A DNA stretch of 64,000 nt from Candidatus Uhrbacteria bacterium (GTDB lineage: Bacteria; Patescibacteriota; Patescibacteriia; UBA9934): assembly GCA_943358395.1 (NCBI GenBank), contig CALRGY010000001.1, positions 8,008-72,007 on the forward strand, in the 5' to 3' direction. Below, in pieces: positions 9,362-52,719 of this stretch. The notes beneath the pieces were generated by a model that saw only the letters and a program-made list of their open reading frames with translations, was not told where the DNA came from and did no database searches. How positions within the stretch are numbered: position 1 is the first letter of the stretch; each line of letters starts with the position of its first letter. A program made the position numbers and the translations under genes.

Positions 9362-9883
9362 ATGCATTCGGCGGAATTGTTTTTAGAGAATGCTGACATT
9401 CTCAACGTATTACGATTTCTTATGGACAATACACAAACATACATTTCTGCACTCGGATTACAAAAGATCAAAGACGAGCTTGTACACCGCATCAAAGTGT
9501 TGCGCCCAGAAATTGCTCAAAAGATTAGTGATGCAAAGGAAATGGGGGACTTGAGCGAAAACTTTGCATACCACGAGGCAAAGGAACAACAAGCACAAAA
9601 TGAAATGCGCATTGTTGATATTCAAGACATGGTTGTGAGTGCGGTGGTGGTAGAGGAAAAAATAGGCGGCGCCATTGGGCTTGGCTCTACATTCGTTGTG
9701 CGAGTGAACAATGCAGAAAAAACATACGAAATTGTGGGAGAGAACGAGGCAGACCCTATGGCAGGGAAAATTAGCAACATGTCGCCGCTCGGCAGTGCTT
9801 TCATGGGAAAGAAGATCGGTGACGCAGTGCATGCCGAAGTACCATCGGGAACTATCGAGTATAGTATTGTTGACGTGAAATAA
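9362..9883 (+). CDS. greA: transcription elongation factor GreA
   Basis: Coiled-coil N-terminal domain and FKBP-like C-terminal domain; the true start may be ATG 9422. Confidence 0.8.
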   Translation: MHSAELFLENADILNVLRFLMDNTQTYISALGLQKIKDELVHRIKVLRPEIAQKISDAKEMGDLSENFAYHEAKEQQAQNEMRIVDIQDMVVSAVVVEEKIGGAIGLGSTFVVRVNNAEKTYEIVGENEADPMAGKISNMSPLGSAFMGKKIGDAVHAEVPSGTIEYSIVDVK

Positions 9884-9893
9884 TGACTCACAT

Positions 9894-11387
9894 ATGACCA
9901 ATGAAGAAGTGGTACGGCGAGAACGATTAACGGCGATCGAGGCACGCGGCATTGATGCGTACCCTGCGGGAAGCACACGCACCGCAATGATCGCTGAAGT
10001 GCTTACAGCGTTCGATCAGCATCTTTCCGCAAGCGACACATGCACGATTGCCGGAAGAATTACGGCGATGCGCCATATTGGTGCCCTTTCTTTTGTGCGT
10101 ATTTTGGACGGCTCTGCACATATGCAGGCCGTTTTGCGTAAAGAAGACCTTGGTGAACAATATACATTTTGCGTGGATCATCTCGACGTCGGTGATATTG
10201 TTGAAGTGACAGGAATTGCGTACCTCACAAAAACTCAAGAGAAGTCGATTCTTGCTCAATCGGTTATTGTCGCCGCAAAAGCACTACAGCCGTTGCCGGA
10301 AAAGTGGCACGGACTTCAGGACGTAGAGATTCGCTATCGTCATCGAGAGCTTGACCTTATTACCAATCCAGAAGTGCGTGATCGTTTCGTGATGCGTTCA
10401 AAGTTCATTGCCGCAATGCGCCGGTTCCTTGACGATTCTGGCTACTTAGAAGTGGAAACGCCTATCCTTCAAGCTATTCCTGGCGGAGCAAGTGCGCGAC
10501 CGTTCATTACCCACCACAATGCACTCGATGCACAATTTTATTTACGGATTGCTACAGAACTCTATTTGAAACGTTTAGTCGTTGGTGGCATGGAAAAGGT
10601 GTACGAAATCGGGCGATGCTTCCGCAATGAAGGCATCGATTACTCCCACAATCCTGAATTCACGATGCTGGAGCTTTATTGCGCATACGCTAAAAAAGAA
10701 GAATTTATTACATTCAACGAAGAGATTCTCCGCAAGTCACTGCATGGAGCAACGGGATCGATGATTGTAACGATCGATGGAGTTGCTGTGGATTTTGCAC
10801 AGGCCTTTCCACGAATGACGTTCCGTGAATCTATTCTTCGTGCGTGCGACATCGACATCGACACATTGCACACCGAAGATGATGTGATGCGTGCTGCAAA
10901 AGATCGTGGGCTTTCCGTCGATTGTACTGGATGTCTTGGGTTCGGCGAATTCCTCGACGCGCTCTATAAAAAAACCGGTCGTGCTGCCATTACTACGCCA
11001 ACATGGATTTTCGACTATCCCGTTGAACTCAAGCCCCTTGCACGCCAGAATCCAGAAGATGCGTCAAAGAGCGCATGCGCACAGCTTGTTATTCTTGGTG
11101 CAGAAATCGTGAATCTCTATTATCACGAGCTGAATAATCCTATTGATCAGCGTGCGCGATTCGAGGTACAGGAATCGCTCCGTGAACAGGGAAGTGAAGA
11201 GGCGCAATTCATGGATGAAGACTTTTTGGCTGCGCTCGAGCACGGCATGCCACCAACCAGCGGAGTAGGGATCGGCATTGATCGCCTCATTGCGATTCTC
11301 ACTGGTGCGCCGAATTTGAAAGAGGTGATTGCGTTCCCTACGCTCAAGCCAAAAAACGAGCATGGCGGCGCTACCGATCAATCGTGA
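9894..11387 (+). CDS. lysS: lysyl-tRNA synthetase (class II)
   Basis: OB anticodon-binding domain, class II motifs FRNEGID and GIGIDRL. Confidence 0.92.
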   Translation: MTNEEVVRRERLTAIEARGIDAYPAGSTRTAMIAEVLTAFDQHLSASDTCTIAGRITAMRHIGALSFVRILDGSAHMQAVLRKEDLGEQYTFCVDHLDVGDIVEVTGIAYLTKTQEKSILAQSVIVAAKALQPLPEKWHGLQDVEIRYRHRELDLITNPEVRDRFVMRSKFIAAMRRFLDDSGYLEVETPILQAIPGGASARPFITHHNALDAQFYLRIATELYLKRLVVGGMEKVYEIGRCFRNEGIDYSHNPEFTMLELYCAYAKKEEFITFNEEILRKSLHGATGSMIVTIDGVAVDFAQAFPRMTFRESILRACDIDIDTLHTEDDVMRAAKDRGLSVDCTGCLGFGEFLDALYKKTGRAAITTPTWIFDYPVELKPLARQNPEDASKSACAQLVILGAEIVNLYYHELNNPIDQRARFEVQESLREQGSEEAQFMDEDFLAALEHGMPPTSGVGIGIDRLIAILTGAPNLKEVIAFPTLKPKNEHGGATDQS

Positions 11388-15210: not shown

Positions 15211-16150
15211 CAAAATAAGTATGATCATCCTCTCCGCAGGAAAAGCGTTTAATGACATCGATGCGTTTGCATGCGCCCTGGCGTATCGCGAACTTCTCAT
15301 CAAAGAAGGGAAGGAATGCTGCGTTGTTTTTCCTGGTCCACTCAACCATTCTGTTACACCTCTCGCAAAACAACAGGATACGGATTTCATCATTGATTAT
15401 GAACTGAAAACCGATGATCGTATCGTATACGTCGATCTTTCTGATCCAGAACACTTTGCGTTCGGGAAAGAAAATGAATCACGGATCGATGAGCTCTACG
15501 ATCATCACTACGGATTCGAGGAATACTGGCGCGATCGACTTGGCGACCGATCACATATTGAACGGCTTGGTGCAGCGGCAACATTAATTTGGGAAGAATA
15601 TATAAAACGGGGTTTCGCTGATTCGATTTCAGCAGAATCCGCAAATCTTCTTTCAATCGCGATTCTTCAGAACACCCTCAACTTTACCTCAACCGAAACG
15701 CACAATCGCGATCGAACCGCGTACTCCGAGCTCGCAAACCATCGATCGATGGCTGATGGATGGGAGACGCAGTATTTCCGAGAATGTGCGGAGGGGATGG
15801 AAGAAAGCTTCGATGACGCACTCCGAAACGATACAAAAAAGATCGAACATCTCTTTGATGGCGCACTTCTCGTCTTTTCGCAGCTCGAGATCACCGAAGA
15901 TCCAAAGGATTTTCTTGAGAAATACTCGAAAAATATCCTTGCGTATTGGTCCGAATTCCCGCGGGAACACTGTATACTTAATATCGCCGATATATCATCA
16001 AAGACATCGCTGATATTCTCCAATGATGATCAATGGCTTACAGAAACCATTATTCCGCTTTTCTCGTCGATGATTGAAAAAGGCGCGGGATGGATCAGGA
16101 TACCAATTCACCAAAGAAAGCAGATTCTCAAACTCATTCAACAACGATAA
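15197..16150 (+). CDS. DHH-family phosphoesterase (NrnA-like)
   Basis: DHH motif YDHHYG and a DHHA1-like C-terminus; the real start is probably the internal ATG near 15224, because the first codons come from the repeat. Confidence 0.65.
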   Translation: MRKSYKISMIILSAGKAFNDIDAFACALAYRELLIKEGKECCVVFPGPLNHSVTPLAKQQDTDFIIDYELKTDDRIVYVDLSDPEHFAFGKENESRIDELYDHHYGFEEYWRDRLGDRSHIERLGAAATLIWEEYIKRGFADSISAESANLLSIAILQNTLNFTSTETHNRDRTAYSELANHRSMADGWETQYFRECAEGMEESFDDALRNDTKKIEHLFDGALLVFSQLEITEDPKDFLEKYSKNILAYWSEFPREHCILNIADISSKTSLIFSNDDQWLTETIIPLFSSMIEKGAGWIRIPIHQRKQILKLIQQR

Positions 16151-16160
16151 TCATCTATAT

Positions 16161-16628
16161 ATGAAAGCAGCTCATTTCACATTGAACGATCAGGTGGGGA
16201 AGGTGCATGAACTGAAGAGTTATGAGGGGAAGTGGGTGATTCTGTACTTTTATCCGAAGGACATGACCCCGGGGTGTACGCAGGAGGCGTGTGATTTTCG
16301 GGATAATATCAATCGTTTAGCATCTGCGAACGTTGTAGTGTTTGGCATTTCGGCAGATGATGAGAAGCGACATGCGAAATTTGCACAAAAAGAATCGTTA
16401 ACGTTTCCATTGCTTGCTGATACCGATCATGCGGTATGTACAGCGTATGGCGTGTGGCAGAAAAAGAAATTCATGGGGCGTGAATACGACGGCATTGTTC
16501 GCACGACGCTCATCATCGATCCAGAAGGGAACATAGCGAAGCGATATGACGAAGTGAAGGTCGGCGGGCACGTCGAAGAGGTACTGAAGGATCTTACAGA
16601 GCTTCAGAAAGGCATTCACCAATCATAA
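16161..16628 (+). CDS. bcp: thiol peroxidase Bcp/PrxQ (peroxiredoxin)
   Basis: PKDMTPGCTQEAC active-site motif. Confidence 0.85.
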   Translation: MKAAHFTLNDQVGKVHELKSYEGKWVILYFYPKDMTPGCTQEACDFRDNINRLASANVVVFGISADDEKRHAKFAQKESLTFPLLADTDHAVCTAYGVWQKKKFMGREYDGIVRTTLIIDPEGNIAKRYDEVKVGGHVEEVLKDLTELQKGIHQS

Positions 16629-21025: not shown

Positions 21026-21116
21026 ACTGTGCCAATCTTAGCACAATTTTATACACAAGGAAACCACATTTTCTTTTGACAGTGCAAAATTAGCACTCTA
21101 TAATAGAGACTGCTAA

Positions 21117-21243
21117 TGTCGGACTTCCCCATTTTGCCCATTTTCGGCTTGCATCATCGGAAACTTCTTCAACGTACCAAGAAGTACGTCTCAGAAGATT
21201 TCCTCGACGCGCACCGAAACTGGTCGAAAATGAGAAAGTCCTA
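21117..21243. repeat. 125-bp palindromic dispersed element, copy 3 (inverted orientation)
   Basis: Ends gtcggacttccccatttt and aaaatgagaaagtccta; internal gtacgtctca; produces the artefactual N-terminal extension of the clpB ORF. Confidence 0.85.
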
Positions 21244-21262
21244 CCGTCCCCTTTCTTCTCCT

Positions 21263-23893
21263 ATGATCCCCAATAATTTCACCAGCAAATCTCAAGAAGC
21301 CATTCAAAATGCCCAAGCCTTCTCCGAGGAACACGGTCAGCACGGTATTGAACCCATTCATCTTTTAGCGGCGCTTACCCGTCAGGAAGGCGGGTTTGTG
21401 GTAACAATCTTTCAAAAAATGGCAACAAGTTTGCCGGCATTGCTGGGCGACGTTGACCGTATGTGTGATGCACTCCCCAAGCATGGCAACCCCGAACGTG
21501 GCGGCATTGGCCAGATTATCCTTACCCCTGCTCTTGCCGCCGTGCTCCAGGCCTCTGCAAAAGTCTCCAAACACTTCGGTGACGAATACATTTCAACAGA
21601 ACATCTTTTACTCGGACTTCTCGTCGACCGCCCCATTGCTGCCATGCTTGCAGAACACGCAGTAACAGAGGCTGCCATTCTTGCCGCACTCAAAGATCTT
21701 CGGGGCAGCCAACGCGTTGACTCTCAAGACCCAGAAACCAAATATCAAGCCATCGAAAAATACAGCATGAACCTTACGGAACGTGCTCGCCACGGCAAGC
21801 TCGACCCGGTGATCGGTCGCGATGAAGAAATTCGGCGCGTCATGCAAGTACTTTCCCGTCGTACGAAAAATAATCCAGTGCTTATTGGCGAAGCGGGCGT
21901 TGGAAAAACAGCGATTGTTGAAGGCTTGGCTATTCGCATTGTTGCCGGCGATGTACCGGAAACGCTCAAGAACAAAGAAGTTGTTTCGCTCGACTTAGGA
22001 TCGCTTATTGCGGGAACCAAATTCCGTGGCGAATTTGAAGAGCGACTCAAGGCGGTAATGCGTGAAGTTTCTCAGTCCGATGGCAAGTACATTCTTTTCA
22101 TCGACGAGCTTCATATGCTGGTTGGTGCCGGGAAAGGCGATGAATCGCCCATGGATGCAAGCAATTTGCTCAAACCCGCCCTTGCCCGGGGCGAGCTTCG
22201 GGTGATTGGCGCCACCACCACAAAGGAATATCAACGACATATTGAAAAAGACCAAGCGCTCGAACGTCGCTTTCAGCCCATTATGGTTGAAGAGCCTTCG
22301 GTTGACGACGCAATCGCCATCCTTCGCGGCATTAAAGAACGCTACGAAATTCATCACGGCGTACGCATTTCAGACAACGCTATTGTTGCCGCCGTTACCC
22401 TTTCTGCACGGTATATTCCCGACCGCCAGCTCCCCGATAAAGCTATTGATCTCATCGATGAAGCCGCCGCCGGACTTCGATTACAGATCGATTCCATGCC
22501 TGAAGAGCTCGATCGCATGAATCGCGAAGAAATGCGCCTACAGATTGAACGCCAAGCCCTACTCAAAGAAGATGATCGTGCATCGAAAGAACGCCTGAAA
22601 GAAATCGAGAAGCTCATTGCAGACAGCAAGGAGCAATCATCGGAATTGACATTGCGATGGACGAACGAAAAAAACCTTATTGCCGCAATTCGGGAAAGCA
22701 AAAGCGCCATCGATAAACTCATGAACGAAGCAGAATACGAAGAACGTCGTGGCAATCTGGAACGCGTTGCCGAAATTCGGTACAGCGAGCTTCCGCACCA
22801 ACGGGAAGCACTCCAAGCAAAAGAAGGCGAATTAAAGCAATTTCAAACAGAACGTGGCTTGCTCAAAGAAGTGATCGCCGAAGAAGATATTGCAAGCGTC
22901 GTGGGCAGATGGACGCATATTCCCGTCTCCAAAATGCTGGAAAGCGACATGGTAAAGCTCGCCCGTATGGAGGAAGAGTTGCAACAGCGTGTAGTGGGGC
23001 AACAAGAAGCCATCACCGCCGTCAGCAATGCGTTGCGCCGTTCACGAGCCGGATTGTCAGAGGAAAAACGTCCGATTGGTTCCTTCATGTTCCTAGGGCC
23101 AACGGGTGTGGGGAAAACCGAACTTGCCCGTGCGCTGGCAACGTTTATGTTTAACGACGAAAAGGCACTGATTCGCTTAGACATGAGCGAATACATGGAA
23201 AAGCACAGCGTAAGCAAAATGATCGGTTCCCCGCCGGGGTATGTGGGATACGAAGAAGGCGGGCAGCTCTCCGAAAAAATTCGAAAGCATCCGTACTCGG
23301 TCATACTCCTCGATGAGATCGAAAAGGCGCACCCAGACGTGTTTAACATGCTGCTGCAAATTTTAGACGACGGCAGGCTTACCGATTCCAAAGGTCGCAC
23401 CGTCAACTTCAAAAATACCATCGTTATCATGACGAGCAACATCGGTAGTGACATCATTCTGAACAGCGGGCGCCGTATTGGATTCATTGAAAGTGAAGGG
23501 GTCAAAACAGATGCCACCCGTGAAAAGGTGCTCGAAATGCTTCGCGATCACTTCCGCCCAGAATTCTTGAACCGCATCGATGAAACCATTGTGTTCCACG
23601 CACTCGATGCAGAGCATATTGCCGCAATCGTGCATCTTCAGCTTGCCCTTGTCACCAATCGTCTGAAAGAAGCGCGCAATATCGCTGTAACCTTTACGGC
23701 ACGGGCAAAGAAGTACATCGCCGAACATGGATACGACCCTCTGTACGGCGCTCGCCCGTTAAAGCGAATTATTCAATCAAAAGTCCTCGACCCCTTGGCA
23801 CTCGAAATCGTCAAAGGTACAATTGGCATAGATTCGGCTGTAACGGTTGATGTCAAAAAAGACGCCGTATTCTTCACCACCACAACCCCATGA
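21263..23893 (+). CDS. clpB: ATP-dependent chaperone ClpB
   Basis: N-domain, two AAA+ modules ([16 protein letters not shown]), a long middle coiled-coil and a C-terminal D2 small domain; start chosen at [14 protein letters not shown]. Confidence 0.92.
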
Positions 23894-24576
23894 CCACTTC
23901 GGCAAAACACATCTTCCTCCTTGATAGCATCGCGATCCTGATCTTTGGTGGGTATTTCGCTTTTCTCTCTGTGAGTCTTGCAACGATGCATCTTCATCCC
24001 GTCACCACGCTCATCGCTGCCCTTCTAGGCTACGTTCTCGCCGACCTTATCTCTGGACTTGTCCACTTTCTTGGCGACACCTTTGGCAGCAAGAATACCC
24101 CCATTGTTGGCGCAGCGTTTATTGAACCGTTTCGCTATCATCACATTGATCCCGAAGACATCACCAAACACGGATTCGTTGAAACCAATGGGCATAATTG
24201 TCTGGTCTCGATTCCGATCCTGATGATCATGACGCATATTCTTCTGAAATACGTTGCCACATCTGCACTTGCTGGGTTTGCCCTTGCCACATCATATTTC
24301 CTTGTGCTCGGCGTATTCCTCACCAACCAATTCCACAAATGGGCACACACCCCAACGCCACCACGATTCATTCAGTTCCTTCAGCACCATCGCATTATTC
24401 TCTCCCCCAACCATCACCGCATCCACCACACCTCCCCCTTCACCCGCTATTTCTGCATCACCACCGGCTGGCTGAACAGCCTCCTCGACTCCCTCAACTT
24501 CTTCCCCCTCACCAAATCCCTCCTCCGCAAAATCCCCTTCATGTTGAAACCCGCGGAGGAGTACGAGGCACGGTAA
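23890..24576 (+). CDS. CarF/TMEM189/FAD4-like membrane lipid desaturase family protein
   Basis: Four TM segments and His-boxes [20 protein letters not shown] and HHRIHH; the start overlaps the clpB stop (ATGA). Confidence 0.45.
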
Positions 24577-24588
24577 CTTCAAAAATCT

Positions 24589-25296
24589 ATGTCTCTTGCA
24601 GAAGAAGCGATCCTCTTCGCAAAGCACAACAAAAAAGAAATCTCCCGCCGGCTGACGAGTCTGGAAGAATACCCACCCAGCGATTCACCCGTCACCATAT
24701 TCATGGCCGGTTCGCCAGGGGCAGGAAAAACAGAGTATTCAAAAAGTTTACTCGCCTACCTCATAAAAAACACAAGTGATCGACCTATTCGTATTGATAG
24801 CGACGAGCTTCGCGGGGAAATTCCCGGATACACAGGGGAAAATTCATCGGAAATGCAGGGGGCTGTCTCCATTCTCCTGAGCGAAATGTACGACCGTGCA
24901 TTAAAGAACCGACAAACCGCTATTATCGACGGGACGTTATCACATTACGGAAAGGCTAAAGAGAACATCGAACGGTCTCTCAAGCGCAATCGGCAAGTGC
25001 TTATTTTCTACATCTACCAGCATCCAGAAGTCGCATGGCAGTTTACCGTTGCACGAGAGCACATTGAGGGACGAAACATTCCAAAACGTGCGTTTATTGA
25101 AAAATTTCTCGGCTCAAAAGCAACCGTCAATCAGATTTATCGGGAATTCAGCGACCGCATAACGCTCTTCTTGGCAAGAAAAAACTTCCAAACGCACGCC
25201 ATTGAAACAGTAGAAATCGTGAGTCCTCAACATTCGGGATTGGACGCATATCTCCCGGAAACATATACTGAAGAGGAATTAGCAAAATTACTATGA
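24589..25296 (+). CDS. zeta-toxin-like P-loop kinase (Zeta_toxin/AAA_33 family)
   Basis: Walker A GSPGAGKTE with following DxD-type motifs; length and architecture resemble zeta/PezT UNAG-kinase toxins. Confidence 0.4.
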   Translation: MSLAEEAILFAKHNKKEISRRLTSLEEYPPSDSPVTIFMAGSPGAGKTEYSKSLLAYLIKNTSDRPIRIDSDELRGEIPGYTGENSSEMQGAVSILLSEMYDRALKNRQTAIIDGTLSHYGKAKENIERSLKRNRQVLIFYIYQHPEVAWQFTVAREHIEGRNIPKRAFIEKFLGSKATVNQIYREFSDRITLFLARKNFQTHAIETVEIVSPQHSGLDAYLPETYTEEELAKLL

Positions 25297-25466
25297 AAAT
25301 CCTATACTTTTTGAAAAAGTCTCTCAAAAAGAATCGTGGAGCTGCCGATTTCTTTCTTCACACTTCAAAGAAAAAGAAGATCAAAATTTTGAATGAAATC
25401 GGTCAAGAAGCAAACACAGCTCAATGGGAGTTGGTCAAACAAAGCGAAGCTCTCAAGTCAGCATAA
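25293..25466 (+). CDS. small basic ORF (57 aa) coupled to the zeta-like gene
   Basis: Its ATG overlaps the zeta-like stop (ATGA); protein MKILYFLKKSLKKNRGAADFFLH...; followed by a terminator; not in the ORF track because it is under 60 aa. Confidence 0.25.
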   Translation: MKILYFLKKSLKKNRGAADFFLHTSKKKKIKILNEIGQEANTAQWELVKQSEALKSA

Positions 25467-25474
25467 TCTCAAAA

Positions 25475-25499
25475 ATCCCCAGGAAAACCTGGGGATTTT
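25475..25499 (+). terminator. rho-independent terminator
   Basis: atccccagg-aaaa-cctggggat hairpin followed by TTTT. Confidence 0.7.
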
Positions 25500-25557
25500 G
25501 TTATAGTCCAGAATTTTCTCTCAAAACCCATTTCTCCCACTTTTCCCCATACCCCAA

Positions 25558-25623
25558 TCGACAAAACCCCATTTTTATGCTAATATTAGCGGTTCCTCTA
25601 CCTGTACGGACACATTGTCCGTA
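25558..25623 (+). promoter_or_regulatory. sigma70-like promoter (TCGACA-N17-TGcTAATAT) plus downstream 8-bp-stem palindrome, copy A
   Basis: TCGACA 25558-63, extended -10 TGcTAATAT 25578-86, hairpin tacggaca-cat-tgtccgta 25605-23; duplicated at 27226-27287. Confidence 0.6.
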
Positions 25624-25657
25624 GGCAAGAACATCACAAAAAACACTGGAGGAGCGG

Positions 25658-27098
25658 ATGCCGCTCACCCTTTTCTGGCTCATTGCCAGTTTCTTCCTTG
25701 GGTGTTCGCAAGAACCCCAAACCATCGTGTACGTCATCGCGGGTGCCCCCCCCTTCTGCGGTTATTTCGCAGGAGGAAGGAGCATTTGCCGAGGACGCAC
25801 CGGTGGAAACTCTCACCGACGCCCCCGCTGCCTATGATGGCGGCAACGGAGACGCATGCGATCTCGACGGGATCGATCCCTATGATCCCGAAAAAGTCAT
25901 CGCTTACGAGATCGTGAATCTCACCGACGAGCAGATCGCAGAGCTCGAGAGCATTGGATACTCATGGTGGGATACCTATTCGCAAATCCCAGAAGCTACT
26001 GTCAATGTCGACATCAACATAACAGTGAGTGAATGCGAAACAGTTTCCTTCACCGATGTAAACCTCGAGATCGGGCGGGAAATGGGTTATGTCGCCCCCT
26101 CTGCCAGCGGAGAAACAAGCTGGCGAGTGGACTATAACGACAGTAATTCCGCTCAAAAAATCGGTGGGTACGACAACGCGAGATGGTGGGCAGAAATCTA
26201 CAGCGGTCCGGTAGCGGAACCGTTTCTGTACCAATACGCCATCAAGTACTTACCGGAAACGCGTGGTCGACGATCTGCGTGGATGACGCTCTCAACGAAT
26301 TATTGGCCTGCGAATTTCGCGGCTGCCTATAACGCGTTTGAACCGTACAGTGAAGACATGATGGATCGGGATTACGGGAAAAACGGGTGGATCTCCATGT
26401 ACGAAGGCGACCCCGCGTACATGACCTGCCAAGTCGGAACCTGCGACGACACGCGCCTCAATGCGTGTTTGACCAAAGTTTACGACATCGAAGCCCTGGA
26501 TGCATCCGATTCACTCGTCGCAGAAACCGGTGACTGCTTCGACTGGTCCAACATCGCAGCAACATACGCTTGGGAGGTCTACTTCAGCCACTGGGACGGA
26601 TTCATGAGTCCGCACAATGGCTACGTAGAAGAATTGGGAGATTCGGCTTCGCCGGACACATCTCGATTCAGCCTCCGAATCGCAGGCGTGGATCTGGTAA
26701 ACCCCAACTGGGTAAGTGTTGAGGAGGTCACGTTTTACTCGTGGTCGACTCTCTACCCACCCTGCTGGAAGGATCAGTCTGAAGGTGGTTGCAGAGCGAT
26801 GCTCGTCGCCGATCTGCAGATCCTAATCGAAGCAGGACGAAGCGGAAAGATGGCGAGTGACCTCGACAAGGTTGCTGCATCCCGCCAAGCCCTCGGGCTC
26901 TGGTGGGAAGGGGTCGACGAGGGCTGGTACAACGACGAACGGGACTGGCTCACCGCCAGACCCGATTACGTCGAAATGGCCCTCACCGATGCTCTCGACC
27001 CCTGCAACGACTGGACTGCCGCAGGGTACAACCCCTGGGACACCGGTCTTGCAGGAGAATGTGGGGACACCGGGTTCATCGATACCGGAAAACCGTAA
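25658..27098 (+). CDS. secreted, possibly lipid-anchored W/Y/D-rich protein, frameshifted at a C8 tract (phase-OFF or sequencing error)
   Basis: ATG 25658 encodes the signal peptide MPLTLFWLIASFFLGC in frame 2. The long ORF continues in frame 0 (25683..27098). Deleting one C from the C8 run at 25746-25753 joins them: ...AGAPPSAVISQEEGAFAED... Confidence 0.55.
25746..25753 (+). repeat. C8 homopolymer tract inside the coding region
   Basis: Eight consecutive C at the signal-peptide/mature-protein junction; the same C8 tract is found at 27329-27336 upstream of the paralogue. Confidence 0.9.
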
Positions 27099-27131
27099 AA
27101 GGCTCAAAAAAAGCGAGGTAGAACAACGAAG

Positions 27132-27170
27132 CCCCCGAGCTGCTATTACGCTGCAGCCCGGGGGTTTTCT
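27132..27170 (+). terminator. rho-independent terminator after lipoprotein gene 1
   Basis: cccccgagctgc...gcagcccggggg stem followed by TTTTCT. Confidence 0.65.
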
Positions 27171-27225
27171 ATTTCAACAACCCTTTCTCCAAACTCCCCC
27201 ATTTCTCTTTTCCACACCCCCCTCG

Positions 27226-27287
27226 TCGACAAAACCCCATTTTTATGCTAATATTAACGGTTCCTCTGCCTGTACGGATGTTCCGTA
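27226..27287 (+). promoter_or_regulatory. sigma70-like promoter plus hairpin, copy B
   Basis: TCGACA 27226-31, TGcTAATAT 27247-54, hairpin tacgga-tgt-tccgta 27273-87; near-identical to 25558-25623. Confidence 0.6.
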
Positions 27288-27328
27288 AACAGACATGAAG
27301 AACCCAACAATTCGTGTCCTCGCGTATG

Positions 27329-27336
27329 CCCCCCCC
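27329..27336 (+). repeat. C8 homopolymer tract in leader/uORF of lipoprotein gene 2
   Basis: Eight C inside a 19-codon uORF (MKNPTIRVLAYAPPFCISA, 27295-27354) that ends 33 nt before the main ATG. Confidence 0.85.
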
Positions 27337-27387
27337 TTCTGCATTTCAGCATGAGGACGGAGCATTTGCCGAGGACGTGGAGAAGTC

Positions 27388-28092
27388 ATGAAGATTTTGA
27401 TTTTTTTGTTTACGCTTCTGGTCGGTGCCTCCTGCACCAACAAGGGTGCCGTCGACCGCACCCCCGACACCGAAACCTTCGACACGGGGGTGGCAGCGTC
27501 TGCCACCCCCGACGACGATGGCGACGGCTACACCGACGACGAGGACTGTGACGACACCGACCCCGCCGTCAACCCGGGAGCCACCGAGATCTGCGACAAT
27601 GTCGACAACGATTGTAACAGCCTCATCGACGATGCCGATCCCGACCTCGATCTCAGTACCGGCACCACCTGGTACGCGGACACCGACCGTGATGGGTACG
27701 GCCAGGGCACCGACCGCCCCACAAGCACCACCACCGCCTGCGACCAACCCGGCGGCTATGTCGCCGACAACACCGACTGCTACGACAACGACCCAGGAAA
27801 TTTTCCCGGGGCTACGGAAGCTTGTGACGGCATCGACAATGACTGCGATGGGGTGGTGGACGAGGGTTTCACGTATTACTACGCCACCCTCGACGAGGAT
27901 GGCGATGGCTGGGGCGGCAACGCCGACGCCGCTTCCGGTTGCCCGGGAACAAAGCCCCCGGACTACTCGGAGAACGTCGGCGACTGCGACGACACCGACC
28001 CCACCGTCAACCCAGAGGCCACCGAGATCTGTAACAACATTGACGATGACTGCGACACCCTCATCGACGAGGAGGAGATCTGCGTGCCATAG
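27388..28092 (+). CDS. secreted, possibly lipid-anchored protein with three MopE-type putative metal-binding repeats
   Basis: Signal peptide MKILIFLFTLLVGASC; three repeats of DxDGDG(Y/W)...C(D/Y)D(T/N)DP.VNP.ATE(I/A)C(D/N).(V/I)D(N/D)DC(N/D).(L/V)(I/V)D(D/E), the Pfam Cu-binding_MopE-like motif. Confidence 0.7.
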   Translation: MKILIFLFTLLVGASCTNKGAVDRTPDTETFDTGVAASATPDDDGDGYTDDEDCDDTDPAVNPGATEICDNVDNDCNSLIDDADPDLDLSTGTTWYADTDRDGYGQGTDRPTSTTTACDQPGGYVADNTDCYDNDPGNFPGATEACDGIDNDCDGVVDEGFTYYYATLDEDGDGWGGNADAASGCPGTKPPDYSENVGDCDDTDPTVNPEATEICNNIDDDCDTLIDEEEICVP

Positions 28093-28117
28093 GAGGCGGT
28101 GCGCAGCAAAAACGAAA

Positions 28118-28160
28118 CCCCCGAGCTGCAATACGGCAAGCTCGGGGGTCTTCAGTTTTA
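28118..28160. terminator. hairpin terminator, possibly bidirectional (lipoprotein 2 / ppa)
   Basis: 9-bp stem cccccgagc...gctcggggg placed between convergent genes. Confidence 0.55.
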
Positions 28161-28166
28161 CGGACA

Positions 28167-28754
28167 TTAGTCTTTGATCTTGGGCAGAATCTCTTTTTGG
28201 TATCTCTCAATACACTCTTCGATCACATTCACTGCTTCGTCCGCGTCGTAGAAGCCGAGGACTTTGCAGGTGCCTGGCTTTTTCAGGTGTTTGTAGAATT
28301 CGAAGTAGTGTGCGGTTTCTTTTGCCCAGTGCTCGCCGAGGTCTGTATATGACGTGATGTGATCAGCGCGCTTGTCGTCGGAAAGCACGCAAATTACTTT
28401 GTCGTCGGTTTCTCCCCCGTCTTCAAATTTCATGATGCCGATGACGCGGACTTCCACGAGCGATCCTGGAATAAGTGGCTCGACAACATTCGCGACGAGA
28501 ATATCCAGCATGTCGTTATCCTGATCCCACGTTTGAGGGATTAAGCCGTACACCGTTGGATACGCTAACGAAGAATACCCCACGCGGTCGAGCTTCAAGT
28601 GACCCGTTTCCGTAATAAACTCGTATTTATTAATACTGCCAGCATTGATTTCCACCAATCCGTTCAACACACGCTTTTCCTTATCTGCCCATGGAGAGAG
28701 CAAGTGCAGCAAGTTCGGCATGAATTTGTGAATCGGCACATCAAGATTTGCCAT
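28167..28754 (-). CDS. ppa: inorganic pyrophosphatase (family I)
   Basis: YPTVYGLIPQTWDQDNDMLDILV and DDKVI blocks typical of soluble PPase. Confidence 0.85.
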   Translation of the reverse strand: MANLDVPIHKFMPNLLHLLSPWADKEKRVLNGLVEINAGSINKYEFITETGHLKLDRVGYSSLAYPTVYGLIPQTWDQDNDMLDILVANVVEPLIPGSLVEVRVIGIMKFEDGGETDDKVICVLSDDKRADHITSYTDLGEHWAKETAHYFEFYKHLKKPGTCKVLGFYDADEAVNVIEECIERYQKEILPKIKD

Positions 28755-28850
28755 AGTTTTCGAAAAAAGAATGAAGAATTCCTACCAGGAATGATGCGTC
28801 CCCAACTCTTTCGTGTCAACGAGGCAGTTTTTCGATATACTGGGAGGCAT

Positions 28851-30221
28851 ATGAAGCATCGCTATTCTTTGTTCATTCTTCCTGCTGTTCTTGCGGCATT
28901 CCTTCTTCCATCCTCATCCCTCGCCTTCGACCCCAACTACATCCTTTCCGACGAAGACCTGACCGATGCGCAATCGATGGATCTGAATCAGATCCAAGCT
29001 TTTCTGGAACGCGGAACATTGGCGACGTACCAAGCCCCAGACTGGGAAGGGAGAACACGCTATGCTGCAGAAATTATTTGGCGCACAGCGCAAGCACACA
29101 ACATCAATCCTCGATTCCTTTTAGTGCTCCTGCAAAAAGAACAAAGCCTTATTGAAGATGCAGACCCAACCCAGAAACAATATGACTGGGCGACGGGATA
29201 CGGTGTGTGTGACAGCTGCTCGATGAACGATGGAGCATTGGCGCGCTGGCAAGGATTTGGAAAACAAGTGAATTCTGCAGCGATGCAATTTACGGAAGGC
29301 TACATGGTGGACATCGAAAAAAACGGTGTGACCGCAGGGAAATACGGCCCAAACATTCCAGTGACCATCGACAAAACCACCGTTACTCCAGAAAACGCTG
29401 CCACTGCCGCAATGTACGCCTACACGCCGCACATTCACGGCAATAAAAACTTTGTCGCGATTTGGGACAAATGGTTTGGCAAAGAATATCCAAACGGAAC
29501 CCTTCTCCAAGCTGCGGGTGATGAAGGCGTTTGGCGCATTGAACAGGGGTATCGCCGCCCTATTACCAGCAAAGCTGCACTCACATCCCGCTATAACAGC
29601 GCATTCATCATTACCGTTTCAAAAACCACTCTTGAGCAATACCCCACCGGCACACCAATCTCGTTACCGAATTATTCCCTTGTGGAAGACGAAAACGGGA
29701 ATCGATATCTTTTAGTGGACGACGGCATGCGCCACATTGCAAGCCTGGAAGCATTTCGCAACATCGGCTTTTCTGAAGATGAACTCGTGGAAATTACCGC
29801 AGCCGAAGTTGCGGAATATGCCGTCGGAACCCCCATTACCATTGCAACACAAGACCCAACGGGAAAAGTCGTCAAACTCTCTACGAATGGCGCAATGTTT
29901 TACCTGAAAGACGGCATTCGCCAAGCTATTCTTGACGAAGCGGTGCTCACAGCGAACTTTCCAAATGCCACCGTGGAGAAAGCTCTGCCCGTGGAAATCG
30001 AACAATATCGCGAAGGTGCATTCCTCAAGCTTCCCGATGGAACCCTCGTTCGATCCATCGAAAACCCAACCGTGTACGTTGTTGCCGACGGGGAACGCCA
30101 CGCCATTCCCAGCGAATCGATATTTCTTGATTACGGCTACGAATGGCCAAACATCATCTTCGTTCAAGACGACGTGCTGAACCTCCATAAAGTCGGCACC
30201 GACCTTGGAACATCGGCATAG
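28851..30221 (+). CDS. secreted hypothetical protein
   Basis: Signal peptide MKHRYSLFILPAVLAAFLLPSSSLA; no recognisable domain; start taken at ATG 28851 with GGGAGG upstream, inside ORF 28599..30221. Confidence 0.5.
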   Translation: MKHRYSLFILPAVLAAFLLPSSSLAFDPNYILSDEDLTDAQSMDLNQIQAFLERGTLATYQAPDWEGRTRYAAEIIWRTAQAHNINPRFLLVLLQKEQSLIEDADPTQKQYDWATGYGVCDSCSMNDGALARWQGFGKQVNSAAMQFTEGYMVDIEKNGVTAGKYGPNIPVTIDKTTVTPENAATAAMYAYTPHIHGNKNFVAIWDKWFGKEYPNGTLLQAAGDEGVWRIEQGYRRPITSKAALTSRYNSAFIITVSKTTLEQYPTGTPISLPNYSLVEDENGNRYLLVDDGMRHIASLEAFRNIGFSEDELVEITAAEVAEYAVGTPITIATQDPTGKVVKLSTNGAMFYLKDGIRQAILDEAVLTANFPNATVEKALPVEIEQYREGAFLKLPDGTLVRSIENPTVYVVADGERHAIPSESIFLDYGYEWPNIIFVQDDVLNLHKVGTDLGTSA

Positions 30222-30240
30222 TATATAACCTATCTTATCG

Positions 30241-30364
30241 AGGACTTTCTCATTTTAGGCTAGTTTCGATGAAGATCGAGGAAAATTCGTGAGACGTACT
30301 TCATGGTACGTTGAACGATTTTCCGATGATCTGAGTCGAAAATAGACAAAATGAGGAAGGACTA
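30241..30364. repeat. 125-bp palindromic dispersed element, copy 4
   Basis: aggactttctcatttt...cgtgagacgtacttcatggtacgttgaacg...aaaatgaggaaggacta. Confidence 0.85.
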
Positions 30365-31163
30365 CATTTCTATGATCGTTTTTGCTGGAATTGTGCCATG
30401 CTCACCGCTACTTCTTCCATCGGTAAACCCCGAACGAGTTGGGCTACTTGAAAAAACGCGCAACGCCATGCGTGAACTGTCTGAAGAGCTTTTCGCTGCG
30501 CATCCCGACACCATCGTGCTCTTTTGTGAACACACGCAATCCCCTGCAGACGCATTCGCCATGAATGTTGCAGACCCATATACCGCAAGCCTCGCAGCGT
30601 TTGGAGACTTAGGCTACACGCAAACATATCACCCGGATTTCATGCTTGCAGACAAAGCTCAACGCGATCTGCGTGGCGGCGGCGTTCCTATCACAATGAT
30701 CACAGAAGACGCACTTCCCTTTGGGGCAACCGTTCCCCTGGAATTCCTTCGCGAGCATCTTCCTTCGGCTCGCATTGTACCGATCGCGCCATGTGGATTA
30801 TCCGCGAAAGAACATTTCGACTTTGGCGCAGCGTTGAACAACACGTTAGTAGAAAGCCCGAAACGCATCGCCATTATTGCAGCAGGAGATTGCTCTCACA
30901 CCCGCTCAACCGAGGCTCCCGACGGGCTCCATGCAGAAGGAAAACAATCGGACGATCTGCTCGAAACACTCATTGCCCAAAAAAATACCGCAGGGCTTTT
31001 GCAGTTCGACGCCACACTTTTGCATGAAGGAAAAGACGGAGCATACCGTCAAATCGTTATGCTCTTCGGCGCATTGGATGGATCACCCGTCGAAGCACGC
31101 ATCCTTTCTCACGAAGCGCCACTCGGAATCGGTCAGATCGTTGCCGAGCTCATTCTCCGATAA
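30351..31163 (+). CDS. MEMO1 / AmmeMemoRadiSam-B-like (class III extradiol dioxygenase fold) protein
   Basis: About 265 aa with conserved His, Asp and Cys positions (…CEHTQSP…, …AAGDCSHTRS…); the true start is probably ATG 30372 (MIVFAGIV) because the first codons lie in the repeat. Confidence 0.4.
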   Translation: MRKDYISMIVFAGIVPCSPLLLPSVNPERVGLLEKTRNAMRELSEELFAAHPDTIVLFCEHTQSPADAFAMNVADPYTASLAAFGDLGYTQTYHPDFMLADKAQRDLRGGGVPITMITEDALPFGATVPLEFLREHLPSARIVPIAPCGLSAKEHFDFGAALNNTLVESPKRIAIIAAGDCSHTRSTEAPDGLHAEGKQSDDLLETLIAQKNTAGLLQFDATLLHEGKDGAYRQIVMLFGALDGSPVEARILSHEAPLGIGQIVAELILR

Positions 31164-42566: not shown

Positions 42567-42950
42567 TTAGACGAATTCAATAACAGCGACTTCTGCGGCA
42601 TCACCCTGACGAATACCCATCTTTGTCAGACGAGTGTATCCACCATTGCGATCCTTAAACCGTGGCGCAAGAACTTCGATAAGCTTTTTCACCGGCTGCT
42701 CTGTTGAGAAGTAGGCTAAAAGCTGACGACGAGATGCAAGAGTATTGGTTTTTGCTACCGTAATCATCTTTTCGACGACTGGACGAAAAACCTTTGCCTT
42801 GCCAGCGGTGACTTCAATACGCTCATATGTAACCATCGCCGTAACGAGGTCACGAATGAGAGCTTTGCGAGCCGAGGACTTTCGCCCTAATGTTTTTGTA
42901 GTATTTCTGTGGCGCATACAATTATTCTTGTGGTGCGTCTTCCGCAGCAC
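42567..42950 (-). CDS. rplQ: 50S ribosomal protein L17
   Basis: [19 protein letters not shown] and FEVTAGKA blocks. Confidence 0.9.
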
Positions 42951-43668
42951 GAGTAATTTGTTCCGTAAGACTTGCGTGGCTCAACTGACCTTGAATCCAC
43001 GTAAAATGGTTCAATAAAATTTTCGTTGTCTGTTCAACCGCTTCCTGAGGAGTAACGGTTCCGTCGGTGGTGATATTCATGATGAGCTTATCGTAGTTGG
43101 TGATTTCTCCAACGCGAGTATTCTCCACACGGAATCCTACGTTCCGCACTGGGCTAAACATTGCATCAACAGCGATGACGCCAATTTCCGTTGGCGCGCT
43201 GTCACGTTCTTCCGTGGGAACGTACCCACGACCACGAGAAACAGTGATTTCCATATCGAACGGTGTCTTTGCATCTGTAATGGTTGCAATTTCAAGTTCT
43301 GGATTTGCGATATCGACATCGGCATTCTTTTCAATTGCCGCAGCAGTCACAACACCAACTTTATTTGTTACAAGTTTGAGAACAACTGGTTCTTCGCTGT
43401 GCACACGCATGCGAAGCTTCTTGATATTGAGCATGATGTCGAGCACATCTTCTTTCACCCCAGGAACCGTAGAAAACTCGTGTTGAACGCCTTTGATTTT
43501 CATTGCCGTAACAGCCGCACCAGGAAGTGATGACAAAAGAACACGACGGAGCGAATTCCCAACCGTTGTTCCGTATCCGTGATGGAGCGGTTCAATGGTT
43601 AAAATTGATTCGTTTGCAACAACGCCGGGGGCGAAGTGCATCTTTGACGGAAGAAAAATGGTCTCCAT
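42922..43668 (-). CDS. rpoA: DNA-directed RNA polymerase alpha subunit, N-terminal domain only (no alpha-CTD apparent)
   Basis: Alpha N-terminal domain ([17 protein letters not shown]); 248 aa ending shortly after the N-terminal domain; overlaps rplQ by 29 nt. Confidence 0.85.
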
Positions 43669-51997: not shown

Positions 51998-52122
51998 TAG
52001 AAACAGATTATTTTCGACCAGTTTCGGTGCGCATCGAGGAAATGTCGTGAGACGTACTTCATGGTACGTTGAACGACTTTCCGATGATGCAAGCCGAAAA
52101 TGGGCAAAATAATCCGTTTCTA
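51998..52122. repeat. 125-bp palindromic dispersed element, copy 8
   Basis: Termini tagaaacagattatttt and aaaataatccgtttcta; the terminal cta (52120-52122) is the stop codon of pduL on the minus strand. Confidence 0.85.
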
Positions 52123-52719
52123 GTGTTGAATATCCCTGATTCGAACATGCGCACCGGAATGCAGCCACATCTCACGAGCAAGATCCTGATGAATATGCAA
52201 ACGAGCACGATACGTTGGATGCACCCGAACAATCACCCCCTCGATGACGCACGTGGCATCCCCAACCACGTCCACCCGCACCACCGCACCATGTGCAAGC
52301 CGCAACGCCGTTGCTTCACTATCGGAAAGATGCAAATGCGGTTTTGGAACAATCACCGATGCCTGAGCATCAACAGTGCCATGCGCAGTACGCAAACGGC
52401 AGGGCTTCGCTGCAGCCAAGTCGCCAGACTTTGCCAGCGGCGCATCAATCCCCAGGAGTCGCGCTTCCGTAGGCGTAAGCTCTACCTGCGTTGCTTTCCG
52501 GTGCGGCCCCAGCACCCGCAACGTCACACACTCTCCATTCGCCCCAATCACATCCACCATTTCCGCATACGCAAACTGCCCAGCCTGCGAAAGCTCGTAC
52601 CGCACCGTCCCCGCATTCCCCTCACCAAAAAGCACCTCATGATGCGCCGCCGAAACATGCACATGCGACGGAATAACTTCTACAGGAATAGGACGAGACA
52701 TACCGGAAAAGTATATCAC
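52120..52719 (-). CDS. pduL: PduL-type phosphate acyltransferase (phosphotransacetylase/propanoyltransferase)
   Basis: Two PduL half-domains: PIPVEVIPSHVHVS, VLGPHRKATQVELTPTEARLLGIDAPLAKSGDL and SVIVPKPHLHLS, RLHIHQD; aligns closely with Salmonella PduL from memory. Confidence 0.75.
   Translation of the reverse strand: MIYFSGMSRPIPVEVIPSHVHVSAAHHEVLFGEGNAGTVRYELSQAGQFAYAEMVDVIGANGECVTLRVLGPHRKATQVELTPTEARLLGIDAPLAKSGDLAAAKPCRLRTAHGTVDAQASVIVPKPHLHLSDSEATALRLAHGAVVRVDVVGDATCVIEGVIVRVHPTYRARLHIHQDLAREMWLHSGAHVRIRDIQH

Follow-up and report, generated by a model that had tools for sequence, protein, structure and literature searches.

A predicted CarF/PEDS1-type lipid desaturase gene directly behind clpB in Candidatus Uhrbacteria

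Introduction

Why would a member of the candidate phyla radiation (CPR, Patescibacteria), bacteria that are generally without lipid synthesis (PMC12577380, PMC9166423), carry a gene for a membrane lipid desaturase, and why directly behind the gene of a heat-shock disaggregase? The question is raised by 64,000 nucleotides of a Candidatus Uhrbacteria genome (assembly GCA_943358395.1, contig CALRGY010000001.1, positions 8,008 to 72,007 of the forward strand), a stretch which will be referred to as the window. In it, an open reading frame (ORF) of 228 amino acids (23890..24576, + strand) begins on the stop codon of clpB. A first-pass annotation made from the sequence alone had assigned its product to the TMEM189/CarF/FAD4 family and proposed co-expression with clpB in a host with a reduced genome. 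Following up this proposal, we report that the ORF encodes a predicted CarF/PEDS1-type membrane diiron lipid desaturase, which is also found behind clpB and a heat-shock operator in related genomes. On balance we lean towards an enzyme that would form vinyl-ether lipids from scavenged ether lipids and would be induced together with ClpB.

The family, its chemistry and its essential residues are already known; the host and the regulon are what is unusual. CarF/PEDS1 homologues have been reported mainly from myxobacteria, a few Leptospira and Alphaproteobacteria (PMC9131029), and among bacteria the aerobic route to plasmalogens is regarded as essentially confined to myxobacteria (PMC13012113). 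In the searchable literature we found no paper tying CPR/Patescibacteria to CarF/PEDS1, to a desaturase or to plasmalogen synthesis, and no description of a lipid desaturase in an HrcA/CIRCE (controlling inverted repeat of chaperone expression) clpB operon.

Family and subtype of the desaturase

Residues 48-211 of the protein align to positions 1-163 of the 175-position Pfam profile PF10520 (Lipid_desat). The score of 178.3 bits (E=1.8e-52) exceeds the gathering cut-off of 26.4 and bears out the family proposed in the first-pass annotation. The NCBI pipeline names close relatives 'fatty acid desaturase CarF family protein [Patescibacteria group bacterium]'. All four His boxes quoted earlier for this ORF were located, namely HFLGD (residues 59-63), YHHID (83-87), NQFHKWAH (146-153) and HHRIHH (175-180). 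A 19-residue hydropathy scan yielded four hydrophobic segments (approximately residues 7-34, 37-62, 104-124 and 124-145), with which the long helices of an AlphaFold2 model coincide (28-sequence alignment; mean predicted local distance difference test score 88.6, predicted template modelling score 0.85). Scan and model agree on the four-transmembrane topology that had been suggested, in which the His boxes share the cytoplasmic side as in the membrane diiron desaturase/hydroxylase fold. The start codon is supported since 20+ homologues align to the protein from residue 1. A sequence search of the PDB returned no solved relative, its sole match (a transketolase, E=0.51) being noise.

Eight His residues are universal and essential in the family (H96, H121, H122, H187, H191, H215, H218 and H219 in murine numbering; PMC7149458), and a ninth (CarF H113, murine H131) is present in PEDS1-type proteins, with Arg in its place in plants (PMC7149458, PMC9131029). 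Murine PEDS1 furthermore requires D100 and retains 6% activity as the F118A variant (PMC8960569). Mutagenesis has demonstrated that these His, Asp and Phe residues are required for PEDS1/CarF activity (PMC7149458, PMC8960569, PMC9131029). In the window protein the eight universal His residues are H59, H84, H85, H149, H153, H176, H179 and H180, placing them at the metal-binding positions of the family as anticipated, and none of them is substituted in any of 22 sequences, which cover CPR, Leptospira, myxobacteria, metazoa and plants. The ninth His is H94, located in ITKHGF, which is aligned to ITRHDF of PEDS1/CarF; D63 and F81 align with murine D100 and F118. Altogether, 11 out of 11 required residues are present, and all of them are invariant in 28 homologues, 17 of which belong to the CPR clade. 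In the rodent sequence P0248 the alignment reproduces murine positions 96, 100, 118, 121, 122, 131, 187, 191, 215, 218 and 219 exactly.

Within PF10520 the family assignment could be sharpened: the protein is of the CarF/PEDS1 type and not of the FAD4 type. The position of H94 is occupied by Arg in five of five plant FAD4 or FAD4-like proteins. The PEDS1-type motifs ETNGxNC and TNQFHKW as well as a third motif of 10 residues are kept, whereas the plant counterparts show a two-residue deletion in the ETNG motif, SQQFHAW and NYCIVSGAWN. Mean identity to the window protein over trimmed columns was 60% for the CPR clade, 44% for Leptospira, 42% for myxobacterial CarF (42-46% over the latter two groups), 37% for metazoan PEDS1 (36-39%) and 26% for FAD4 (26-27%). 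In a neighbour-joining tree with 200 bootstraps, for which supports were computed as unrooted bipartitions, the FAD4 bipartition obtained 100% and the CPR clade was monophyletic with 87.5%. The CPR clade was placed among bacterial and animal PEDS1-type sequences, with a sister-group support of at most 47%. Alignment and tree included Arabidopsis thaliana FAD4 with its paralogues, other plant FAD4, myxobacterial CarF, Leptospira homologues and PEDS1 of primate, rodent, frog, fish, Lingula and amphioxus, and contained no alphaproteobacterial (non-PEDS1) homologue. The FAD4 and TMEM189 references were database proteins 92% and 98% identical to the FAD4 and human TMEM189 queries, and only database proteins were used. 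A FAD4-type identity was rejected because the ninth His, the motifs, the percentages of identity and the tree all speak against it. By every sequence criterion tested except the equivalog score, which is weighed below, the protein is of the CarF/PEDS1 type.

Plasmanylethanolamine desaturase function has been demonstrated for M. xanthus CarF, for Leptospira and for animal TMEM189/PEDS1, whereas complementation fails with plant FAD4 and with an alphaproteobacterial homologue, which are not PEDS1 (PMC9131029). Because the myxobacterial, Leptospira and animal homologues have been validated experimentally, we propose by analogy that the window enzyme would carry out the same vinyl-ether-forming (plasmanyl to plasmenyl) reaction. 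A different outcome of the same family and the same diiron/O2 chemistry would be another substrate or regiochemistry: an acyl desaturase that would modify scavenged diacyl- or lyso-phospholipids (at the FAD4-like Δ3-trans or another position) and so adjust the fluidity of lipids that the cell is unable to make. PF10520 includes FAD4, which acts on the sn-2 acyl chain of phosphatidylglycerol, as well as the non-PEDS1 alphaproteobacterial homologue (PMC9131029, PMC13012113). Such an enzyme would also fit the score below the CarF equivalog cut-off, the absence of ether-lipid genes among the window ORFs scanned and a peroxiredoxin gene of the Bcp/PrxQ type 7 kb upstream; the activity of plant FAD4 is stimulated by, or reported to depend on, PrxQ. 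Nevertheless, the identity to FAD4 is far lower than that to the validated bacterial PEDS1 proteins, His94 stands where FAD4 has Arg, and neither the two-residue deletion nor SQQFHAW nor NYCIVSGAWN is found. Moreover, heat induction of a fluidising acyl desaturase would oppose the usual homeoviscous adaptation. We consider an acyl desaturase rather unlikely and return to the PEDS1-type reaction below.

Promoter, operator and the clpB-desaturase junction

Upstream of clpB, a sigma-70-type promoter (21076..21104, + strand; TTGACA, 17-nt spacer, TATAAT) matches the consensus in 12 of 12 positions and is the sole perfect promoter consensus between 20500 and 26000. Its -10 box sits within the spacer of a CIRCE inverted repeat (21090..21116, + strand), TTAGCACTC-N9-GACTGCTAA, which deviates by one mismatch from the consensus TTAGCACTC-N9-GAGTGCTAA and represents a putative HrcA operator. 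This is the single match in the window at no more than two mismatches, and none was obtained in 100 shuffles. CIRCE is the operator of the heat-shock repressor HrcA. A perfect CIRCE lies 5′ of clpB in all eight relatives with upstream sequence (contigs L002, L003, L005, L007, L009, L013, L054 and L070 of our set), the spacer holding TATAAT or TATACT. In the Mollicutes Spiroplasma and Mycoplasma, HrcA controls only a few promoters, one of them that of clpB (PMC5138195).

The gene for the ATP-dependent disaggregase ClpB occupies 21263..23893 (+ strand). Its mechanical ORF of 925 amino acids starts at 21116, with a first ATG that overlaps the end of CIRCE, and contains the Pfam domains AAA_2, AAA_lid_9, ClpB_D2-small and Clp_N; TIGR03346 matches it with 1235 bits (cut-off 1232) from ORF residue 55 onwards. 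The first 49 codons of this ORF probably do not belong to clpB, the true start of which would be the ATG at 21263, because the ClpB model and the ClpB proteins of the relatives begin there. If so, positions 21116-21262 are likely to be a clpB leader of approximately 150 nt. The only Rfam match in the window was one tRNA; near the clpB operon neither a riboswitch nor a leader RNA was detected.

The desaturase ATG (23890-23892) overlaps the clpB TGA (23891-23893) to give ATGA, as noted before, within the junction sequence CCCATGACC. The distance from stop to start, which is -4 nt here, amounts to 1-8 nt in nine relatives (L002, L003, L004, L005, L006, L009, L070, L082 and L083), to ~30 nt in L084 and in L007 and to ~90 nt in L013. 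Hence the tight junction is general among relatives, and the literal ATGA is particular to this genome. The overlap points to translational coupling in this genome, and this part of the first-pass annotation stands; it does not extend to the relatives with their small positive gaps. In L007 the spacer (~9868-9896) contains a perfect palindrome with 12-bp arms, AAGGCACGGAAATTTCCGTGCCTT, without a T-run, which is absent from the window and might form an RNA-processing or attenuation hairpin.

Expression of the desaturase from a promoter of its own was also considered. A promoter-like site with 10 of 12 matches lies in the 3′ end of clpB (23795-23823), 95 nt 5′ of the desaturase ATG. It is not conserved in relatives, which makes it unlikely as a conserved route of expression. 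The proposed co-expression with clpB gains indirect but strong support from the tight junction in relatives, the absence of a conserved internal promoter and the shared CIRCE-promoter 5′ of clpB. The most economical reading of these sequence features is a bicistronic clpB-desaturase operon that would be co-transcribed and repressed by HrcA.

Conservation of the locus and presence of the desaturase

The synteny check proposed with the first-pass annotation revealed the order gltX–wecG–DUF2238–clpB–desaturase in at least 12 related contigs. The order M23 peptidase–gltX–wecG–DUF2238–clpB–desaturase is kept in L002, L003, L005, L007, L009, L013, L082, L083 and L084 and is partly visible in L004, L006 and L070. 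Further syntenic metagenome contigs with the desaturase are L085, L088, L091/L092 and L104. Across the loci named first the identity to the window proteins falls from 92% to 70% for ClpB and from 65% to 46% for the desaturase, and both values co-vary (Spearman 0.78).

The metagenome-assembled genome (MAG) records L003, L004, L007, L009 and L013, which share the order gltX–wecG–DUF2238–clpB–desaturase, include several titled 'uncultured Gammaproteobacteria bacterium'. The ClpB proteins of the MAGs with this title are 70-84% identical to that of the window, and the organism names are apparently wrong.

A metagenome scan seeded with the divergent DUF2238 neighbour recovered the contigs L085, L088, L091/L092 and L104, which have the desaturase, as well as syntenic contigs lacking it. 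In L090, whose ClpB is 87% identical, clpB is followed after 42 nt by a convergent pyrophosphatase gene (ppa), and clpB is likewise followed by ppa in L098/L099 and L111. L097 carries an unrelated ORF of 214 amino acids in the slot behind clpB, and L105, from the group without the desaturase, has neither gene.

The ppa gene of the window (28167-28754) is 81-90% identical to its counterparts where the desaturase is present, even with a ClpB of only 72% identity, and 40-42% identical where the desaturase is absent. Desaturase and ppa may have been exchanged as a block.

These contigs bear on a second alternative, in which the position behind clpB has no regulatory meaning: the desaturase would have entered a permissive slot by horizontal transfer, would be carried along by synteny and would be expressed by passive read-through or from a weak promoter of its own. 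The slot is indeed variable, holding ppa (L090, L098/L099, L111), the 214-aa gene (L097) or, further downstream in the window, a 3.6-kb insertion. The region is collinear, so that adjacency may simply be inherited, and the promoter-like site inside clpB could serve the gene. That site lacks conservation, however, and in the nine relatives with 1-8 nt between the genes the junction is too short for a terminator or a promoter. The pairing also persists where identity has dropped to 70% for ClpB and to 46-50% for the desaturase, with the co-variation given above, and in L054, a rearranged contig of high GC content, the desaturase is still within 2.3 kb of the CIRCE-clpB gene. We therefore regard a meaningless position as distinctly improbable and retain the HrcA-repressed operon.

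Host, oxygen and the proposed reaction

The nearest homologues of the desaturase (55-66% identity) come from MAGs with the label Patescibacteria group or Candidatus Uhrbacteria, and the ClpB proteins of these MAGs are 90-92% identical. The window encodes aminoacyl-tRNA synthetases, MreBC/PBP2, MurJ, glycosyltransferases, ribosomal proteins, DnaJ, Era and GreA. Both the closest ClpB and desaturase sequences and this gene content back a patescibacterial origin and, with it, the reduced-genome host suspected at first. No lipid-biosynthesis domains were found among the ~56 ORFs scanned in the window.

A diiron desaturase depends on O2. Of the relatives with the desaturase, three are labelled Hainich H41 (H41-bin182_1, H41-bin101_1 and H41-bin180_1, with matching ERZ12926xx contigs), and another is a lake MAG labelled Uhrbacteria, which places the conserved gene in a CPR lineage of oxic groundwater and lakes. 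Hainich well H41 contains 5.0 ± 1.55 mg/L dissolved O2, and the inventory of O2-using CPR enzymes in the same study lists no desaturase (PMC12577380).

Elsewhere in the window, 16074-16628 (+ strand) encode a thioredoxin-dependent thiol peroxidase of the Bcp/PrxQ type (NF006960, 171.7 bits, cut-off 140; PF00578), an oxidative-stress enzyme whose gene precedes that of the desaturase by 7 kb. A LigB-family protein resembling class III extradiol dioxygenases is encoded at 30351-31163 (+ strand; PF02900, E=1.2e-24). Its gene is kept in the same syntenic block of relatives, between an ORF of ~460 amino acids (window 28599-30221, no known family) and priA, and it may represent another O2-using enzyme in a CPR genome.

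On this basis we propose the following mechanism, which we consider somewhat more probable than its alternatives taken together. Four transmembrane helices would anchor a membrane-bound, O2-dependent diiron desaturase whose N-terminus, central loop (residues 58-100) and C-terminal region are cytoplasmic and whose dimetal centre would be built by the nine His residues with Asp63 and Phe81. The enzyme would introduce a 1′-desaturation into the sn-1 alkyl chain of an ether glycerophospholipid, converting a plasmanyl into a plasmenyl lipid (plasmalogen). We suggest that this lipid is taken from the host or the surroundings, since lipid synthesis of their own is not known from Patescibacteria. As the distal cistron of the clpB operon, the desaturase gene would be driven by the sigma-70 promoter with its -10 box inside CIRCE, repressed by HrcA and induced by heat or proteotoxic stress together with the disaggregase. 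The induced enzyme might then remodel the membrane or supply vinyl-ether lipids as sacrificial antioxidants. The remodelling of acquired lipids at times of stress that was suggested for this locus, and with it the physiological role, the substrate and the electron donor, would follow from this scheme by analogy.

Several observations weigh against this mechanism. The NCBIfam CarF equivalog model NF045946 recognizes the protein with E=2.9e-63, but its score of 213.8 bits is far under the curated cut-off of 500, and by the NCBI rule the protein is therefore only a 'CarF family' protein and not an equivalog. Genes for ether-lipid precursors (AGPS, FAR, GNPAT, ElbD-type) were not found among the ~56 window ORFs scanned. 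The full ether-lipid/plasmalogen precursor pathway occurs in only 73 bacterial genomes, and most bacteria with a PEDS1 homologue are without it (PMC13012113); for both reasons the plasmanyl substrate is hypothetical. An alphaproteobacterial member of the family is without PEDS1 activity (PMC9131029), which shows that the function of bacterial homologues can differ. No electron donor was found near the desaturase, and hrcA was not found among the window ORFs scanned. The desaturase is, moreover, a dispensable, accessory gene at a variable junction, since relatives with the same gene order lack it at the exact clpB junction. Finally, these genomes keep the entire neighbourhood collinear from the M23 peptidase to fmt, so that the conserved position next to clpB says less about functional coupling than it may seem to.

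Relation to known systems

With CarF of M. xanthus and its Leptospira counterpart the window protein shares PF10520, four transmembrane helices, the nine His residues with Asp and Phe, the three motifs and 42-46% identity over nearly the full length. It falls under the NF045946 cut-off, and the N- and C-terminal extensions of myxobacterial CarF are absent from its 228 amino acids. The host differs as well, being a member of the Patescibacteria without an evident ether-lipid pathway in the 64-kb window. CarF belongs to a light-response regulon, whereas the window gene lies in a clpB operon predicted to be under CIRCE control; in the Leptospira and myxobacterial loci no clpB is present within 10 kb of the carF-type gene.

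Animal PEDS1/TMEM189 has the same nine His, Asp and Phe residues at 36-39% identity. It resides in the eukaryotic endoplasmic reticulum and acts on plasmanylethanolamine from the peroxisomal pathway (PMC13012113), whereas the CPR protein is without a known donor or substrate supply. Plant FAD4, a palmitoyl-[glycerolipid] 3-(E)-desaturase, shares PF10520, the eight universal His residues and the conserved Asp. Unlike the window protein it carries Arg at the ninth His, the two-residue ETNG deletion and other third and C-terminal motifs, shows only 26-27% identity and forms a separate clade with 100% support. With respect to regulation, the HrcA/CIRCE clpB genes of other reduced-genome bacteria such as the Mollicutes also have a CIRCE that overlaps the clpB promoter; the window operon differs from them in having a lipid desaturase as second cistron.

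Other features of the window

In relatives, the convergent ppa gene directly follows the desaturase, whereas in the window a 3.6-kb insertion (24577-28166) separates the two. It begins with a gene for a zeta-toxin-family kinase-like protein (24589..25296, + strand; PF06414, E=1.7e-36) located 12 nt 3′ of the desaturase, which is overlapped by an ORF of 57 amino acids (25293-25466). An ORF of 471 amino acids without family match (25683-27098) and a Cys/Asp-rich protein with the MopE 'putative metal-binding motif' (27388-28092, PF11617) follow. The zeta-toxin-like gene was found only in the identical contig L001 and lies 3′ of the desaturase in none of the relatives. It was thus rejected as a conserved operon partner, being genome-specific, and is probably co-transcribed with the desaturase in this genome only. 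Part of the insertion is atypical, its GC content reaching 0.56-0.62 (0.80 at third codon positions) compared to 0.49 for the window, which suggests a recent horizontal acquisition.

The first terminator-like hairpin with T-run 3′ of the series clpB, desaturase, zeta-toxin-like gene and 57-aa ORF is a pattern match at 25652..25676 (+ strand; GAGCGGATGCCGCTC + ACCCTTTTCT). Terminator-like matches in the region numbered 11 against a shuffled expectation of 7.8 +/- 2.6 and are not clearly above it.

Two genes on the opposite strand may be mentioned. A PduL-type phosphate propanoyltransferase, a fermentative acyl-phosphate enzyme, is encoded at 52120-52719 (- strand; PF06130, E=1.4e-45), and at 42922-43668 (- strand) lies the gene for a short RpoA of 248 amino acids, in which only the N-terminal and insert domains were matched.

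Conclusions

If the protein were an ordinary family member expressed by passive read-through, the result would amount to a routine annotation. The most far-reaching version, which we regard as doubtful and put forward tentatively, is that Patescibacteria of oxic groundwater and lakes turn ether lipids stolen from their hosts into plasmalogens by means of O2, as part of the HrcA response to heat and proteotoxic stress. If true, aerobic plasmalogen formation would be carried out by a bacterium without lipid synthesis, and lipid remodelling would join the class I (HrcA) heat-shock regulon. It would also explain the many 'orphan' bacterial PEDS1 homologues without the rest of the pathway.

A PEDS1-type enzyme that is catalytically intact as judged from its residues would, in ultra-small, lipid-auxotrophic Patescibacteria, join the few directly O2-consuming membrane enzymes known from CPR bacteria. 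The locus provides a clean test case for the role of 'orphan' PEDS1 homologues where the host cannot make the ether precursor, and the CIRCE-clpB-desaturase operon leads to the testable prediction of heat-inducible lipid desaturation. The presence or absence of the gene at a fixed junction furthermore represents a set of natural controls for comparative lipidomics.

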